Both the position numbers and the translations under genes were made by a program. Shown here piece after piece: positions 19,814 through 61,573 of a stretch of 64,000 nt of DNA. How positions within the stretch are numbered: the stretch's first letter is position 1; every line of letters begins with the position of its first letter. Origin of the DNA: Escherichia phage Murica; the sequence record NC_041871.1. The stretch is one strand, 5' to 3'. The notes below the pieces were generated by a model, which searched no databases, was not told the origin of the DNA, and saw only the letters and a program-made list of their open reading frames with translations.

Positions 19814-19866
19814 TATATCCCTCACTAATGTATTTTACCACAAAGATACATCAAAAGCAACAATTT

Positions 19867-24403: not shown

Positions 24404-25960
24404 TTAATTTTCCATGTTGGATATGGAATTATCTCTGGTTGATGACATCTTAGAAGTGCCGTTACCAGTGGATCCTGCAGCCATTCCATCACCAGCTCTA
24501 CTGATGTCCTGGCCCAAGAGCTTCATCAGCTCTTCCTGATCCATGTCCTCGTCAAATCTTTCATCAAACCCACCTACTTCAAGAATCTTATTAATTACTG
24601 CAGGAGTTTTTGGCAAGTAACCTACAGCACCGATCCTCTGGACAAACTTGGAGAAGCTCTCCATGTCCACCTCTTCAATCAGACCAGGTTTCAGTTTAGG
24701 CATATCATCATCTTCAAGGATGATACCATTCAATGCCAGAAGTTGTGGAATAAGATCTTTGTTGAAGGCTTCAGTGATAATATCTATATCACGCTGAACA
24801 AAATGACCATGGATAGACTGTTTTGACTCAGACAGAGAGAAGGATCCAACGTTATCGTTACCGAGGTTAATAAAGCCAGCACCGAAACGGTCAAGAATCG
24901 CCTTCTTACGGGCATCAATCAAATCTTTAGTGGAATACTGCTTACCCATACCGTCAACCCCCTTCAGGGTCATGGAGTAAAGCTCTTTACCAGACTTATC
25001 TCTATCAGACGGAAGTATAAAGAAACTTTGCTCACCACTATGGGCGTTTGCTGCGTCAAGCATAAGGTCTGCAACCATTCTCCCCTCCATTGAATTCGGG
25101 TCAATGCTGGCCTTGTTCAAAATATTGGAAGGAATTTTCAGCTCAAGCACACCACCAAGGTCTTTGGAACAGCCAACAACCTCAAGGTTTTCAATCAGAA
25201 CTTTCTCACGGAAAGATCTGTAGCAACCTATCATAGGTGACACACCTGCAGGGTTAGATTCTGTTCCTGACAGGGTCATGAGCATAAGCTTTTTAGCAGG
25301 GATGAAAATTTCAGGCTCATTAAAGCCTTTTGAAGGCATTGCAGCAAGAGGTCCAGCCCAGCGTGCATTCTGAGTGTTTAGAAATGCATTAGGTGACTGA
25401 TAAATACCTGTCAGTGTTCTACTGTTCTTGTCAAAGACAAACGGCTCTGATCTGGACAAACTGGCCTGAGGTCGGAATGCAATTTTATCAATAAGAAGCA
25501 TCCCGGCGTATTTACCTTCTTTCTCTCTGCGGTATACTTTCTCAAACAGTGAAAAACCATACTCGTTAAAGGTAGCTGCGCTTCTTGCAATATCTCGAAG
25601 AGTTTGTTGGTTTGCCAAATTACGCAAAGAATACTCTATAAGCTCTGCAGCTTTCTTAGAGTCTTCACTTTTAACATTATAAAGGATCTTAAAATCATTG
25701 AATGCTTTCGTGATGAAAACATATTTTGTATCTAAGGCAGTAGCAACTGTGGAATCACATTTCATAGTCTCCACTGTAGCAATCAGCTGAGGCCAACGCA
25801 ATTCCTCAACCATCATAGATTGCGATTCTGCCATAATTTGGGAAAGTGCGCCAGAACCGATCTCACTCATACGAACATTATGAGTTGGTGCGCCTGCGTT
25901 CCCAGATTTATTCACAGTTTTGGCTGTGGCGTTGTGTTTCCTGCGGTTCTTTTTGGACAC
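24404..25960 (-). CDS. portal protein
   Basis: 518-aa ORF immediately downstream of the large terminase; GTG start with GAGGGG RBS. Confidence 0.65.
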   Translation of the reverse strand: MSKKNRRKHNATAKTVNKSGNAGAPTHNVRMSEIGSGALSQIMAESQSMMVEELRWPQLIATVETMKCDSTVATALDTKYVFITKAFNDFKILYNVKSEDSKKAAELIEYSLRNLANQQTLRDIARSAATFNEYGFSLFEKVYRREKEGKYAGMLLIDKIAFRPQASLSRSEPFVFDKNSRTLTGIYQSPNAFLNTQNARWAGPLAAMPSKGFNEPEIFIPAKKLMLMTLSGTESNPAGVSPMIGCYRSFREKVLIENLEVVGCSKDLGGVLELKIPSNILNKASIDPNSMEGRMVADLMLDAANAHSGEQSFFILPSDRDKSGKELYSMTLKGVDGMGKQYSTKDLIDARKKAILDRFGAGFINLGNDNVGSFSLSESKQSIHGHFVQRDIDIITEAFNKDLIPQLLALNGIILEDDDMPKLKPGLIEEVDMESFSKFVQRIGAVGYLPKTPAVINKILEVGGFDERFDEDMDQEELMKLLGQDISRAGDGMAAGSTGNGTSKMSSTRDNSISNMEN

Positions 25961-26062
25961 AAGCTTTACCCCTCAAAACAGTATAACAAAATAGCCCTCG
26001 TGTTAGAGGGCTAGTATCTCCGATTACTCTATTCTACCACATCTAATTAAGATTGGCAACAC

Positions 26063-27610
26063 TTAGATAAAACGCTTGAACATAGAAGGTGATGAGATTG
26101 ATGGAATCACACAAGGAAGTGCTACCTCCTCTTTCTCCAGGAAATTAATCGCAGAAGCTACACAGTCTGCCCAGTCGTCTTTTCTGTTAAATGTTGATCT
26201 TTCTCCGTTGAATTTTTCAAGTTCAGTCAGAAATGCTTCCAGAGTATCAGGATGGAAACTGGATTTTACAATCCTCACCATTCCTTGTTGTGCAAGATTG
26301 GCAAAAGGTGAGAACCTTGTCAGTTTAGATTTGTTGGAAGGCATTGGGTCTTCTTCAACCCTGAACCCTTCGGCGAGCAAGGATCTGGATGAGGTTAAGA
26401 ACTCACTCTTACCTGCCTGACCAGGGTCCACAGAGAATACGATTATGCAATCATCACCATCAAACTGCGCCTGTTTCCTGATGATCACATCTCGTTCACC
26501 AGCCTTTTTACAGAACTTGCCTTCCAGACCTGTGGAATACCTCCCGTCATCCACGTTCTCAGGACAATAATCACCGGACAGGTAATAAAAGCCGTCGCTA
26601 TCTTTACTTACCTTAATACTGGCGGTAAAGTCAGGAAATTTATTACCGGAAGTTCTCTCGGTTCCTGCCTTATCCCATGCCCTGCAAGATACTGATCCAA
26701 TGGGTACTCTATCGGCATCACGAAGGAAAGATCTTTGAAAATAGTTTGCACCCTCAGGCTTTGCAAACCAGTTACCATGAAGAAGCTGAGCTTTTTCCAG
26801 TTCCGGCAGACCTTCAAGGAAAGCAAGGTATTCTGGGTTGTCTCTTAAGCAGACAGGATTATCGAATATTGTTGCGCCTATAAACGAGAATGACAACGGT
26901 CTTGGCTTGATCTCTACGCCAAGTCCGTTAACCGTGGTGTATTTCTCTATCAACTCTTCTTTAGAGTCTCCCCAGATAAATTCACCGTCGCGTCGGATAA
27001 AATATCTTTTCTTACCGCATTTCTCCGGATCTGGATACCCTTCATCGTCCAACCACCATCTAACCAGTTTGGCAAGCATGTGTTCTGAATCGGGGTTACA
27101 GCTGATAACCATTCTTGATGGATACTTTGACTGAGATCGCAGACGAGACATCAGATAGTCTATCTGCTCCCATTCGAACTGCGTGCCCTCATCGAAGCAA
27201 ACCATGGTGTACTCAAGCCCCTGATGGTTAAGCTTATCTTGTACATACTCCATATGGCAGTATTTTACAACAGCTCCCTTTTTGCTTCTATCCCACTTAC
27301 CAGTGTTCGGATCAAACCGTGGAAAAATGAACTTATGATCCTTCTCTCTGAACTTTGGCTTAATGTTTTCAGGCAGATCACTGTAAATAGCTACTGCTTT
27401 AGGCCATAGTCCACCCTCACCTTCCAACTGTGGGGTTGTTCTTCGGAACATAACCACAGAGCTGTGGGGGTCATCAATAATTTTAAGTGGCATCAACTGC
27501 AAGAGGAACGACTTGCCAGACCCTGCGGCACCGCCGATTACCAAAATATCTGCATCGTTTTCTAGGATCATCTTCTGCTTTTCAGAACACGGTCCGTAAA
27601 TCTTAGACAT
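26063..27610 (-). CDS. terL: terminase large subunit
   Basis: 515 aa; N-terminal Walker A GGAAGSGKS, ATPase then nuclease-domain organisation; strong RBS. Confidence 0.85.
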   Translation of the reverse strand: MSKIYGPCSEKQKMILENDADILVIGGAAGSGKSFLLQLMPLKIIDDPHSSVVMFRRTTPQLEGEGGLWPKAVAIYSDLPENIKPKFREKDHKFIFPRFDPNTGKWDRSKKGAVVKYCHMEYVQDKLNHQGLEYTMVCFDEGTQFEWEQIDYLMSRLRSQSKYPSRMVISCNPDSEHMLAKLVRWWLDDEGYPDPEKCGKKRYFIRRDGEFIWGDSKEELIEKYTTVNGLGVEIKPRPLSFSFIGATIFDNPVCLRDNPEYLAFLEGLPELEKAQLLHGNWFAKPEGANYFQRSFLRDADRVPIGSVSCRAWDKAGTERTSGNKFPDFTASIKVSKDSDGFYYLSGDYCPENVDDGRYSTGLEGKFCKKAGERDVIIRKQAQFDGDDCIIVFSVDPGQAGKSEFLTSSRSLLAEGFRVEEDPMPSNKSKLTRFSPFANLAQQGMVRIVKSSFHPDTLEAFLTELEKFNGERSTFNRKDDWADCVASAINFLEKEEVALPCVIPSISSPSMFKRFI

Positions 27611-32041: not shown

Positions 32042-32392
32042 CTAACCAGTTGTTGACATTCGAATAACTTCTTCTGGTGGCAAAACTTTGGAAAATGTGC
32101 ATCTTTTACCTCTCCCTTGTGTGGATGTTTCAACCACTCCTGCACATTCTAAAGTTTTAACGCACGCTGCTGCTTTTGTTTTCTTTATCCCAACATCTGC
32201 TGCAATTTTCCTTGTGCTTGGTGTGAAGCGGGAATTTCCTCCAAGCTTATACCAGTTGTGCAGGTAGCAGTATACAATCTTGTCATACAAGTCAAGAACA
32301 ACAACCTCCCCAGTTGTGTCATTCAAAACTTTTGACATAGATAGTATTTCAAGGGGGACTTTAAGATATAGCAGCTTATCCCCATCTTTCAT
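32042..32392 (-). CDS. putative helix-turn-helix DNA-binding protein
   Basis: 116 aa with AGGAGAT RBS; HTH-like segment STRKIAADVGIKKTKAAACVKTLECAGVV; lies next to the iteron array. Confidence 0.4.
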   Translation of the reverse strand: MKDGDKLLYLKVPLEILSMSKVLNDTTGEVVVLDLYDKIVYCYLHNWYKLGGNSRFTPSTRKIAADVGIKKTKAAACVKTLECAGVVETSTQGRGKRCTFSKVLPPEEVIRMSTTG

Positions 32393-32439
32393 ATCTCCTG
32401 ATTCTCCTTGTGTGGCAATTTTCTTTAAAATAGCAGGGA

Positions 32440-32994
32440 TTACTCCCTGCTGTCAATATCAAAACTCATTGCAATACGGTATGCCTCTTCTAATGGTAAG
32501 AGTCTCCCCCACACATCCCAACCGACATCAAGCTGCCTGCCAAACAACTGTTGTGTGGTTCCGTGAGCATGACCGAACAGTTGGACTGATCCGTGAGGCT
32601 TTCTGTTCCACTTTGCAAACTGGTAATGGCTCATACAGATCAAATTCTTGTTGTGGCGAAGCTCGTAATAATCTACAACCTCATGACCGAACTCTTTCAT
32701 AATTCTGACAGTCGTCCTTGTGTCATGGTTGCCACGAACAAGAATAATATGTCCGTTCAACATATTTAGAATATCTGGAAGTAAGTTGTTGATATTCTTA
32801 TCATTAGTGCACGCAATATCTCCCAGGTGGAACACAGTGTCTGCAGGTGACACAACGGAGTTCCACTCGGTGATGATTCCCGCATTCATACTGTCAAGAT
32901 TGTGATCATATTGAGATCTGTGTTTTTGACATGAATCAAACTCCATGACCCGCTGGTGGAGAAAGTGCGTATCGCTTGTTACAAAGTATTTCAT
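32440..32994 (-). CDS. calcineurin-like metallophosphoesterase (putative polynucleotide 2',3'-phosphatase)
   Basis: motifs SDTHF, GDIACT and GNHD; ORF track 32440..33099 trimmed to ATG at 32992-32994 with GAGGAA RBS. Confidence 0.65.
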   Translation of the reverse strand: MKYFVTSDTHFLHQRVMEFDSCQKHRSQYDHNLDSMNAGIITEWNSVVSPADTVFHLGDIACTNDKNINNLLPDILNMLNGHIILVRGNHDTRTTVRIMKEFGHEVVDYYELRHNKNLICMSHYQFAKWNRKPHGSVQLFGHAHGTTQQLFGRQLDVGWDVWGRLLPLEEAYRIAMSFDIDSRE

Positions 32995-33472: not shown

Positions 33473-33501
33473 TTGACACTAGGTTATTTGTGTGGCAGGA
33501 T
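33473..33501 (+). promoter_or_regulatory. plus-strand early promoter (TTGACA-17-TGTGG-CAGGAT, extended -10-like)
   Basis: consensus -35 TTGACA at 33473-33478; TG-containing element before a weak -10; back-to-back with the minus promoter. Confidence 0.4.
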
Positions 33502-38325: not shown

Positions 38326-38796
38326 ATGAAACTTGATAAAAATGTTCAACGAAAAGCTTTCTTGGATATGATCGCATATTCGGAAGGCACAGATAATGGT
38401 AGGCAACCCACTAAGGATCGTGGATACGATGTCATAGTTGGTGGCAAGCTGTTTAGCGATTACAGCAAGCATCCAGGTGTGTACGTTAAGCTAAATGCTA
38501 AACTTACCTCCTCCGCTGCTGGTCGTTACCAGGTTTTGGAGAAGTTTGCTAAACACTACATGGAACAGTTAGGATTGCCAGATTTTGGCCCTGCCAGTCA
38601 GGACAAGATTGCGTTGCAACTGATCCGTGAGTGCAAGGCTCTCGCCGACATTGACGAAGGGCGTATCCACGAGGCTATCCATAAATGCCGTTCCCGCTGG
38701 GCTTCGTTACCTGGTGCTGGATATGGTCAGCATGAACAGAAGATCGAGAAGTTGATCGAGGTGTTTAAAAAGGCAGGCGGTGTTGTCCTTGATTGA
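38326..38796 (+). CDS. endolysin, lambda R-like lytic transglycosylase
   Basis: QRKAFLDMIAYSEGTDNGRQ...YDVIVGG is near-identical in pattern to the lambda R N-terminus, including the catalytic Glu. Confidence 0.85.
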   Translation: MKLDKNVQRKAFLDMIAYSEGTDNGRQPTKDRGYDVIVGGKLFSDYSKHPGVYVKLNAKLTSSAAGRYQVLEKFAKHYMEQLGLPDFGPASQDKIALQLIRECKALADIDEGRIHEAIHKCRSRWASLPGAGYGQHEQKIEKLIEVFKKAGGVVLD

Positions 38797-38799
38797 TCA

Positions 38800-38828
38800 T
38801 TGACATAACCACACGGACGTGGTATTGT
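38800..38828 (+). promoter_or_regulatory. promoter TTGACA-17-TATTGT with CCAC-N6-GTGG palindrome in the spacer
   Basis: -35 at 38800-38805, -10 at 38823-38828, TG-containing extended -10; upstream of the 38860 gene. Confidence 0.5.
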
Positions 38829-54521: not shown

Positions 54522-54551
54522 TTGACAAAAGCCACAAGGATGTGGCATATT
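54522..54551 (+). promoter_or_regulatory. promoter TTGACA-18-CATATT with CCACA-N4-TGTGG palindrome in the spacer
   Basis: -35 at 54522-54527; palindrome 54532-54545 ends in a TG-containing extended -10. Confidence 0.45.
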
Positions 54552-54581: not shown

Positions 54582-54698
54582 ATGTCATCAGGTATTTATA
54601 AAATTTGCAAGTGCGGCTGTAGTTGCAATCTTCGTTGGTGCAAGGCACTAGACGATTTTATTTGGCATTGCCCTAAATGTGATGCGGAGTATCTATGA
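54582..54698 (+). CDS. small Cys-rich zinc-ribbon-like protein (38 aa)
   Basis: not in the ORF track (below 60 aa); GGAGG RBS then ATG; CKCGCSC...CPKCD; stop overlaps the nrdG ATG. Confidence 0.35.
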   Translation: MSSGIYKICKCGCSCNLRWCKALDDFIWHCPKCDAEYL

Positions 54699-55168
54699 AC
54701 ATTGTCGGATACGCAGAAATATCTTACACCGAAGGGCCAGGTATTAGAACTGCCTTGTGGGTATCTGGGTGCCCACACGCTTGCCCTGGTTGCTTTAATC
54801 AGGCATTTTGGTCAAAAGATAAGGGGAGGGAGTTCACTGAAGAAGACTTGCAAAAAATCTTGTCAGGTTTAGATAACCCGTCTGTGTGCGGTATCTCTCT
54901 GCTGGGTGGAGAACCCTTAGCATACTATAATGAGCCAGATATTATTAGCCTGATGGAGAAAATTAAGGAAAAATTTGGTGACAAGAAAACTATTCTTGTA
55001 TATACTGGGTTCACATTTGACCATATCTCTAGTGATGTTCTTAAACTGGCTGATATCATCATTGACGGTAAGTATGTAAAAGATTTACCAACCAAGAAAC
55101 CGTTCCGAGGCAGTGATAACCAAAGAATGTTTAAAAAAGTATCAGGCGGTTGGGTTCAGGTAGACTAG
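54695..55168 (+). CDS. nrdG: anaerobic ribonucleotide reductase activating protein (radical SAM)
   Basis: N-terminal Cys cluster GCPHACPGC characteristic of NrdG. Confidence 0.8.
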   Translation: MNIVGYAEISYTEGPGIRTALWVSGCPHACPGCFNQAFWSKDKGREFTEEDLQKILSGLDNPSVCGISLLGGEPLAYYNEPDIISLMEKIKEKFGDKKTILVYTGFTFDHISSDVLKLADIIIDGKYVKDLPTKKPFRGSDNQRMFKKVSGGWVQVD

Positions 55169-56621: not shown

Positions 56622-56933
56622 ATGGCTACAATACAAGAGAAACTGAATAAAATATACTGCCTGTTTGTCTATAACGGCGAGACAATTTTGGCAAATAAGG
56701 GATCCAAGAATGTGTGGACCAAGGACAGCGGTGGTAATATAATTAACTTAGCGTTGCTACGTGAGCGCCGACACAGATTCTTTATCGAGTCTAGAATTAT
56801 TGAAAGCAGCACTTGCTACAGAACAGGCGATAAAGTAATTGTTGACAATGATACGTGGTATGTGGTAGACTGGCAATCATTGAGTTGTGATGCTTCTGAC
56901 AATCGTAAGTATTCCATAGTGATTGCTAAATAA
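56622..56933 (+). CDS. hypothetical protein
   Basis: 103-aa ORF with RBS; contains an internal promoter-like element at 56842-56871. Confidence 0.4.
   Translation: MATIQEKLNKIYCLFVYNGETILANKGSKNVWTKDSGGNIINLALLRERRHRFFIESRIIESSTCYRTGDKVIVDNDTWYVVDWQSLSCDASDNRKYSIVIAK
56842..56871 (+). promoter_or_regulatory. promoter-like TTGACA-18-TGTGG-TAGACT inside the 3' end of the preceding ORF
   Basis: same TTGACA..TGTGG architecture as at 33473 and 38800; about 120 bp upstream of the ClpP-like gene. Confidence 0.35.
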
Positions 56934-61511: not shown

Positions 61512-61573
61512 TAGTTGAGATATGGCACAAAGGATGTGCCATAGTGAAATAAACTAAGAAAGAGGTAGAGAGA

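Follow-up and report, generated by a model that had tools for sequence, protein, structure and literature searches.

Several rightward promoter-like sites in the DNA of Escherichia phage Murica (NC_041871.1), of which a stretch of 64,000 nucleotides (the window) was analyzed, combine a perfect TTGACA -35 hexamer with a GTGG directly upstream of a weak -10 hexamer, and an earlier note on this DNA had described palindromes between the hexamers of two of them and suggested a promoter class of its own, possibly bound by a phage or host regulator. The reading that we favor, with a probability of roughly 0.6, is that these sites serve host sigma70 as '-35/TGn' promoters, similar to the early promoters of phage T4, and that at three sites the TGTG(G/C) adjoining the -10 is also the 3' arm of a stem-loop resembling those embedded in the promoter/stem-loop cassettes (promoter-early stem-loops, PeSLs) of T4-type phages.

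The four sites listed in the earlier note (38800, 54522, 33473 and 56842) were all recovered with GTGG directly 5' of the -10. Site 1 (38800-38828, plus strand) has TTGACA (38800-38805) separated by 17 bp from TATTGT (38823-38828), with GTGG at 38819-38822 and the T-15 and G-14 bases at 38820-38821, and it is placed in an intergenic stretch of 63 nt that separates the endolysin gene from an open reading frame (ORF) encoding a membrane protein of 68 amino acids. Site 2 (54522-54551, plus strand) has TTGACA, an 18-bp spacer and CATATT (54546-54551), with TGTGG at 54541-54545, and is found in a 63-nt gap between nrdD and a cysteine-rich ORF of 38 amino acids, itself located before nrdG. The other two are the site preceding the first rightward gene, which encodes an RNA ligase (33473-33501, plus strand; TTGACA-17-CAGGAT, TGTGG at 33491-33495, without a palindrome), and the one at 56842-56871 (plus strand; TTGACA-18-TAGACT, TGTGG at 56861-56865, tandem GTGGTA-T-GTGGTA). 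The sites 38800, 54522 and 33473 are in short intergenic gaps, and 56842 is intragenic. Searching for TTGACA-N12-14-GTGG gave four matches, all on the plus strand, against a mean of 0.61 in shuffled sequence, and none of 100 shuffles reached four.

At all four sites, and also at 61535-61545 (TG(G/C)), T occupies -15 and G occupies -14, one base 5' of the hexamer. The TTGACA hexamers are spaced at 17 or 18 bp from -10 elements (TATTGT, CATATT, CAGGAT and TAGACT) that match the consensus at three or four of six positions and keep A-11 and T-7. Judged from its sequence, the GTGG that recurs at these sites is the extended -10 (TGn) element of sigma70, and they are predicted promoters of the '-35/TGn' class. 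The TGn element is contacted by region 3 of sigma70, and '-35/TGn' is a recognized class with gapA P1 and T4 Pminor as examples; among TGn promoters, -10 elements with three or fewer matches are more frequent (PMC2613000). Contact of sigma region 3 with T-15 and G-14 (G also being present at -16 and -13), together with the perfect -35, would offset the weak -10 hexamers, which retain just A-11, T-7 and one or two further matches. The T4 early-promoter consensus, GTTTAC(N14)gtggTAttaT (Miller 2003, quoted in GenBank MZ726795), contains the same gtgg, and T4 early promoters have been described as UP/-35/TGn/-10 promoters in which a GT-rich run precedes -12 (Hinton 2010, PMC2988021; Nolan 2006, PMC1524935). 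The pattern GTTTAC-N14-GTGGTATAAT had 127 matches in IMG/VR contigs, some of them probably fortuitous, because a 16-base pattern should turn up by chance in so large a collection.

For phage rV5, 33 sigma70-like promoters were predicted, 11 of them with an extended -10 (Kropinski 2013, PMC3606486, Table S4), and the site at 38800 is the orthologue of one of these, P090 (TTGACATAACCACACGGACGTGGTATTTT; PMC3606486, Table S4). Orthologues of 54522, 33473, 56842 and 61521 are absent from that paper, and spacer stem-loops are not mentioned there (PMC3606486). The division into two promoter classes proposed in the earlier note holds only in part: promoters with TTGACA, GTGG and a weak -10 do coexist with promoters of consensus -35/-10 type, but sigma70 promoters form an established mix-and-match continuum from -35/-10 to -35/TGn (PMC2613000), in which they are no new class. 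The two groups are also not cleanly split, because 39820, one of the sites regarded as plain, itself carries a TG at -15/-14 (TGaTATTAT). We infer that the GTGG sites would be a point on the normal continuum rather than a separately regulated class, and since the element is the sigma70 extended -10, with one site already published for rV5, no new promoter class or regulator is required. The pattern GTGG.A...T, in which GTGG precedes a -10-like hexamer, showed no intergenic enrichment (15 of 113 sites intergenic, compared with an intergenic fraction of 13.7%).

Both palindromes of the earlier note are present, CCACACGGACGTGG at 38809-38822 and CCACAAGGATGTGG at 54532-54545; they are identical at 12 of 14 positions and in the same register, and sites 1 and 2 are the closest spacer pair among 817 promoter pairs, leaving aside a truly repeated cassette. 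On the sense strand each can be drawn as a stem-loop. Stem-loop 1 (38808-38823, plus strand; ACCAC-[ACGGAC]-GTGGT, -6.4 kcal/mol) has a loop of the form A-N-GGA-X, and its 5-bp stem alone is not significant (p = 0.08, spacer shuffles). Stem-loop 2 (54531-54546, plus strand; GCCACA-[AGGA]-TGTGGC, core ACAAGGATGT, -9.3 kcal/mol) has a 6-bp stem that was reached in one of 300 spacer shuffles. A third member, absent from the earlier note, was identified at 61521-61543 (plus strand, extending to 61545 with its -10), where TATGGCACA-[AAGGA]-TGTGCCATA is followed by TGc-CATAGT in the same register; it is the strongest of the palindrome family, with a fold energy z-score of -5.3.

In each of the three hairpins the TGTG(G/C) adjoining the -10 is the 3' arm, all three are in the sense orientation, and the GGA in the loop is invariant. 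For genome-wide counts the window was combined with the remainder of the genome of phage vB_EcoM-Pr121LW (loci L070-L072) to give 134.6 kb, and the pattern CACA.{1,2}GGA[CT]GTG occurs there exactly three times on both strands, every time intergenic and on the sense strand, against a shuffle mean of 0.37, a comparison that overstates the significance because the motif was defined after the sites had been seen. Inverted repeats at p<0.01 were detected in the spacers of 3 of 41 promoter candidates. The simpler CCAC-N6-GTGG is found six times in the window (0.75 expected); as a genome-wide site it was rejected, with the same six in 134.6 kb and none beyond the window, six also at N3 spacing, and four of the six N6 copies in coding sequence.

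The positions of the hairpins suggest how they could act. Transcripts starting at the internal promoter would begin 3' of the hairpin, and read-through transcripts from upstream genes would fold it between cistrons, where it would serve as an attenuator, a 3' stabilizer or a protein-binding site. We infer a stem-loop function of this kind, and efficient termination such as that of the RB49 PeSLs is doubtful, because the hairpins are weak and lack proper U-tracts. An intrinsic terminator was considered for site 2, which a simple scan flagged as terminator-like on both strands, and was rejected in view of its weak stem and interrupted U-tract. No match to Pfam was obtained for the three downstream ORFs, and an Rfam scan of the window returned tRNAs and no other known RNA family.

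The window belongs to an rV5-like Escherichia coli myovirus of the genus Vequintavirus, with Escherichia phages LL12 and vB_EcoM-Pr121LW as top matches (99.5% with a 2-kb probe), and this probe, taken from around the 38800 site, matched 125 phage records. According to the LL12 annotation and our own ORF map, the leftward genes (1-33412) include structural genes, lysis genes and tRNAs, and the rightward genes (33513-64000) include those for RNA ligase, DNA ligase, endolysin and nucleotide metabolism. At site 1 the -35, the TGG and the TAT are invariant in nine relatives, including an outgroup with an unrelated spacer; within the genus both stem arms are invariant as well, and only the loop bases N and X beside the GGA vary (ECP2309 and ECP32). 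Six of seven genomes carry site 2 unchanged, and the seventh, YP-6, has a single C-to-T change. The site 3 core GGCACAAAGGATGTGCCATA is invariant in five genomes, with variation in the upstream '-35' region and in the adjacent intergenic positions. At 33473 the -35 and the TGTGG are invariant and three spacer positions vary, and in ECP2309 the -10 is improved to CAGAAT. The invariant -35/TGG/TAT of site 1 and the pattern at 33473 fit a promoter function. The site at 56842 is also conserved, which is uninformative because it is under coding constraint within ORF 56622-56933. Among the records matching at these loci, about 20 GenBank entries are titled 'Campylobacter phage' (host C. jejuni) and have 97-100% identity to E. 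coli rV5-like phages; this host label looks doubtful.

The surroundings of the promoters differ between relatives. In four Vequintavirus genomes (loci including L076, L077 and L066) the endolysin gene is swapped for unrelated sequence up to 38791-38796, with the 38800 promoter and the downstream ORF near-identical, so that the breakpoint falls exactly at the promoter start. Outgroup IMG/VR contigs L002 and L004 have TTGACA-17-(cTGG)TATACT after the endolysin gene and no left arm; the IMG/VR scans made with the endolysin and NrdG proteins returned chiefly unrelated prophage lysozymes, and only four or five contigs were relevant. The surroundings of the 54522 promoter are a hyperplastic spot: in phage I29 a gene with a T5orf172 domain is inserted after nrdD, and the window, at 54582-55168 between the 38-amino-acid cysteine-rich ORF and nrdG, is missing two LL12 genes of small size (115 and 116; L001 36592-37566). 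In another outgroup, the phi92-like phage muut, the genes nrdD and nrdG overlap and are not separated by a small ORF or a promoter. The cassettes would mark module boundaries, places where genes are swapped or inserted. In T4-type phages, the PeSLs described by Arbiol et al. and Comeau et al. have a stem-loop between their -35 and -10 (PMC2839356, PMC4122927), and the evidence leans towards reading the palindrome as an embedded stem-loop of PeSL type rather than as an operator.

The hairpin is shared with other phages. A 35-nt query of site 2 matched intergenic DNA of T4-like phages, namely Klebsiella phage Mineola (TTTACTTTGCCACAAGGATGTGGTACTAT), Tequatrovirus UGKSEcP1 (TTTACTTTGCCACAAGGATGTGGTATAAT) and Serratia phage X20 (TTTACAATACCACAAGGATGTGGTATATT), and also a Salmonella phage of the Vequintavirinae, SSBI34 (AGCCACAAGGATGTGGCC, without a -35). 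The site 2 15-mer is identical in T4, Mineola, UGKSEcP1 and SSBI34. A 78-nt T4-type promoter region matched 707 T4-like records, T4 itself included, where the element is located between nrdC.5 and nrdC.4, and an IMG/VR scan with NrdC.4 recovered five T4-like promoters, all identical and thus without variation. Two neighboring gaps of T4 contain the shorter forms AGCCA-AGGA-TGGCT and TACCA-AGGA-TGGTA, the latter running straight into TATAAT. Only 4 of the 127 IMG/VR GTGG promoters have CCAC in the spacer and only one has GGA[CT] before the GTGG, so that both the left arm and the GGA come on top of the promoter consensus and do not belong to it.

In the nrdC.3-nrdC.8 cluster of T4, three intergenic gaps (NC_000866 49860-49913, 50916-50972 and 53303-53357; locus L098) each have a hairpin of the form CCA(CA)-AGGA-(TG)TGG, in three different settings: an early-type promoter, a position before a late-like box (TATAAATC), and a middle-like promoter with a MotA box and TATAAT. 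Phage muut, from a different subfamily, also has a sigma70-like promoter that contains a spacer hairpin with GGA in the loop, TTGACA-AGCCCagggatcGGGCT-TATACT (L092 3037-3065).

Several observations weigh against the reading of these sites as '-35/TGn' promoters with an embedded stem-loop. The site at 61521 has only a weak -35, TTGAGA (61515, 19 bp), which is not conserved in relatives, and the site at 56842 is within ORF 56622-56933, 123 nt 5' of a ClpP-like gene. Across the genome, the -10 elements of TGn candidates are not significantly weaker than the others (4.43 versus 4.74 matches, p = 0.16), so that compensation of a weak -10 by TGn, although in the right direction, was rejected as a genome-wide trend. 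With fold energies of -6.4 to -12.5 kcal/mol and poor U-tracts, the hairpins are weak, the terminators of this phage having -12 to -25 kcal/mol, and at 38800 and 54522 there is no evident A/T-rich region upstream, which PeSLs typically have. That unrelated families of phages share an identical 15-mer, including the GGA of the loop, is not explained by a purely structural role. In the literature we found no transcriptome or transcription start site (TSS) study of a Vequintavirus.

As proposed in the earlier note, the palindrome could instead be a DNA operator at which a dimeric phage or host regulator would occlude or aid RNA polymerase at the extended -10, an explanation that we regard as quite improbable. 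Operators inside promoter spacers occur in the MerR family and with P22 Arc. The best argument for a link at the DNA level is the fixed register of the inverted repeat with the -10 at all three sites; the repeat is also kept within the genus, and a gene close by, at 32042-32392, encodes a small helix-turn-helix (HTH) protein (weak HTH_36/DUF6945 matches). However, the arm spacing is N6 at sites 1 and 2 but N7 at site 3, the center, a conserved GGA, lacks symmetry and is on the sense strand in every case, and the outer pairs vary yet stay complementary (A-T/C-G, G-C/C-G and G-C/G-C, tabulated by hand across the three hairpin sites). Wobble pairs form on the sense strand only, a U.G in YP-6 and a G.U outer pair in T4 and Mineola (A-U in X20 and at site 1). 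An operator also sits poorly with a total of just three sites in 134.6 kb, of which the early region contains none, with the presence of the same element in T4-like phages, whose encoded regulators differ, and with the nearest outgroup promoter, which does not have the left arm. An inverted repeat between the hexamers is a feature of MerR-family promoters too, but here the palindrome is not centered and directly adjoins or overlaps the -10, and the spacers of 17-18 bp are too short for a promoter of that type (19-20 bp), which was rejected; in addition, a Pfam scan of ten neighboring proteins found no MerR domain. Known sites were rejected as well: the order of the half-sites does not fit CRP (TGTGA-N6-TCACA), a DnaA box fits at just 6-7 of 9 positions, a sigma54 -24/-12 element at TGGCAC... 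would have the wrong spacing, and restriction sites of BstXI/DraIII type do not fit. Taken together, asymmetry, spacing, pairing and wobbles would favor base pairing over a symmetric protein-DNA site, each being a weak indication from a small sample. It also seems unlikely to us that the left arm is functionless and that one promoter cassette of the T4 nrdC.4 type has been shared by descent or horizontal spread, with complementarity that is incidental. Sites 2 and 3 are indeed identical at 10 of 14 ungapped positions before the -10, and near-identical if one more A in the loop is taken into account, 15 nt are the same in T4-like and rV5-like copies, and the 5-bp stem of site 1 only reaches p = 0.08 by itself. 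Yet sites 2 and 3 differ by a compensatory pair (GCCACA/TGTGGC versus GGCACA/TGTGCC), the flanks, the -35 and the -10 have diverged where the hairpin has not, and the hairpin core of site 3 is invariant while adjacent intergenic positions vary.

The invariant GGA also allows the hairpin to be viewed as a sequence-specific RNA site for host CsrA or another RNA-binding protein, a doubtful but not negligible possibility, in which CsrA bridging the ANGGA loop and the GGA of the Shine-Dalgarno (SD) sequence would set the translation or stability of the small gene, and transcripts from the internal promoter, without the hairpin, would escape this control. CsrA and RsmE recognize a GGA in an apical loop, ideally an ANGGAX hexaloop on a stem, and cross-linking and immunoprecipitation (CLIP) shows A(N)GGA in apical loops. 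The loops here, A-C-GGA-C, A-A-GGA-U and AA-A-GGA-U, are on stems and fit the apical-loop GGA rule, the GGA is invariant and the flanking loop bases are variable, and at sites 1 and 2 the SD, 32-33 nt downstream, contains another GGA. Site 2 (ACARGGAUGU) agrees at 10 of 10 core positions with the SELEX consensus RUACARGGAUGU, but ACARGGATGT is expected about 0.5 times in the genome by chance, and therefore one perfect match is weak evidence. The 15-mer is present in E. coli, Klebsiella, Serratia and Salmonella phages despite differing -35 and -10 elements, GGA[CT] before GTGG occurs in just 1 of the 127 IMG/VR GTGG promoters, the wobble variants would function on the sense strand alone, and there is a precedent in the ColE7 lysis gene, which is repressed by CsrA via a loop site and an SD site. 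On the other hand, the motif was defined post hoc, the loop of site 3 contains one more base and the SD there has no GGA, the hairpin is transcribed only given read-through from upstream, an RNA role does not need the fixed register with the -10, and we found no literature linking CsrA to T4 or rV5 mRNAs. The hairpin is shared by rV5-like phages, T4 and T4-like phages of Klebsiella and Serratia, and the more general proposal suggested by its sequence, that (G/A)CCACA-AGGA-TGTGG(C/T) may be a host-read RNA signal, for CsrA or another conserved RNA-binding protein, overlaid on internal promoters in unrelated enterobacterial myoviruses, is unlikely. If true, the hairpin on read-through transcripts would let small accessory genes be expressed in step with the Csr state of the host.

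Our preferred reading, of sigma70 '-35/TGn' promoters with PeSL-like stem-loops, thus involves nothing that is categorically new, the promoter types being known sigma70 biology already noted for rV5. What is new is the presence of PeSL-like cassettes at module boundaries of rV5-like phages, as this mechanism of modular shuffling was previously described only for T4-type phages, and the occurrence of one GGA-loop hairpin common to rV5-like phages and T4. If the hairpin were a site for CsrA or another host RNA-binding protein, it would represent a rare case of lytic phages wiring accessory genes into a global post-transcriptional circuit of the host, an idea that is directly testable in T4.

A related architecture was found on the minus strand at 32427-32456, where a GC-rich hairpin of 8 bp (AGCAGGGA-gtaa-TCCCTGCT, -14.6 kcal/mol, reached in none of 300 shuffles) makes up the spacer of TTGACA-18-TATTTT. 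This hairpin is terminator-like, supplies the TGc before the -10, and spans the stop codon of a phosphoesterase gene, 5' of the small HTH gene at 32042-32392; from its sequence it looks like an overlapping terminator and promoter. In the early region of Pr121LW, a phage of the species to which the window belongs, there is a cassette of about 57 nt (TTTATTTTTAGATGGCCTTGACTCCAGGGCCATCAATAAAGTAAACT) in four copies (L071 3413-3469, 4032-4088, 7751-7807 and 4366-4422), with a stem-loop of -17.8 kcal/mol around the -35 TTGACT, followed by TAAACT, and these copies are PeSL-like units between small early ORFs. Elsewhere in the window, the terminase large-subunit gene, annotated in LL12 with an intron (two joined pieces), corresponds to about 25720-27586 (minus strand), and in a simple ORF map a gap of 297 nt (25766-26062) separates the ORFs 24404-25765 and 26063-27610 in this region.

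When compared with known promoters, the sites resemble T4 early promoters in having gtgg directly 5' of the -10, and 38819-38828 (GTGGTATTGT) fits gtggTAttaT at 9 of 10 positions; the T4 nrdC.4 promoter even has the same spacer, GCCACAAGGATGTGG, as site 54522. They differ from T4 early promoters in their -35, which is GTTTAC there and TTGACA here, in their upstream sequences (gtccttgattgatca and tgtggttgctgattc), which are not A-rich like the UP element (-40 to -44) of T4-type early promoters, and in their location in a DNA-metabolism and lysis region instead of an early-gene setting. With gapA P1 and T4 Pminor they share a good -35, a TGn one base 5' of the hexamer and a poor -10 with A-11 and T-7, but here the -35 is a perfect TTGACA, the TGTG doubles as a hairpin arm in three members, and the activity is predicted. 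GTGG followed by TA is also a feature of the putative late motif of rV5, TggTAaAAtA (PMC3606486). Copies of this late motif are found in the window at 19832-19841 (GTGGTAAAAT) and 26031-26040 (GTGGTAGAAT), both on the minus strand, without any -35 and 5' of structural genes, and by their sequence they look like -35-independent extended -10 promoters.

CsrA/RsmE sites share with the hairpins an apical-loop GGA on a short stem and a second GGA in the SD about 32 nt downstream, but the hairpins here are 5' of the predicted TSS, and so on read-through RNA only, and the resemblance was noticed post hoc. The PeSLs of the phage pairs RB49/phi1, PST/T4 and nt-1/KVP40 are likewise intergenic, with a sigma70 promoter close to consensus and a stem-loop located between its -35 and -10 or over the -10, then an SD and ATG, and are located before small ORFans at breakpoints of indels or replacements. 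The PeSL layout is found at sites 1-3 and at 32456 (minus strand), in a different phage subfamily and with stems that are short, weak and not composed of G/C runs. Whereas RB49 has far more PeSLs, there are three related copies here, each of them preceding a small ORF.

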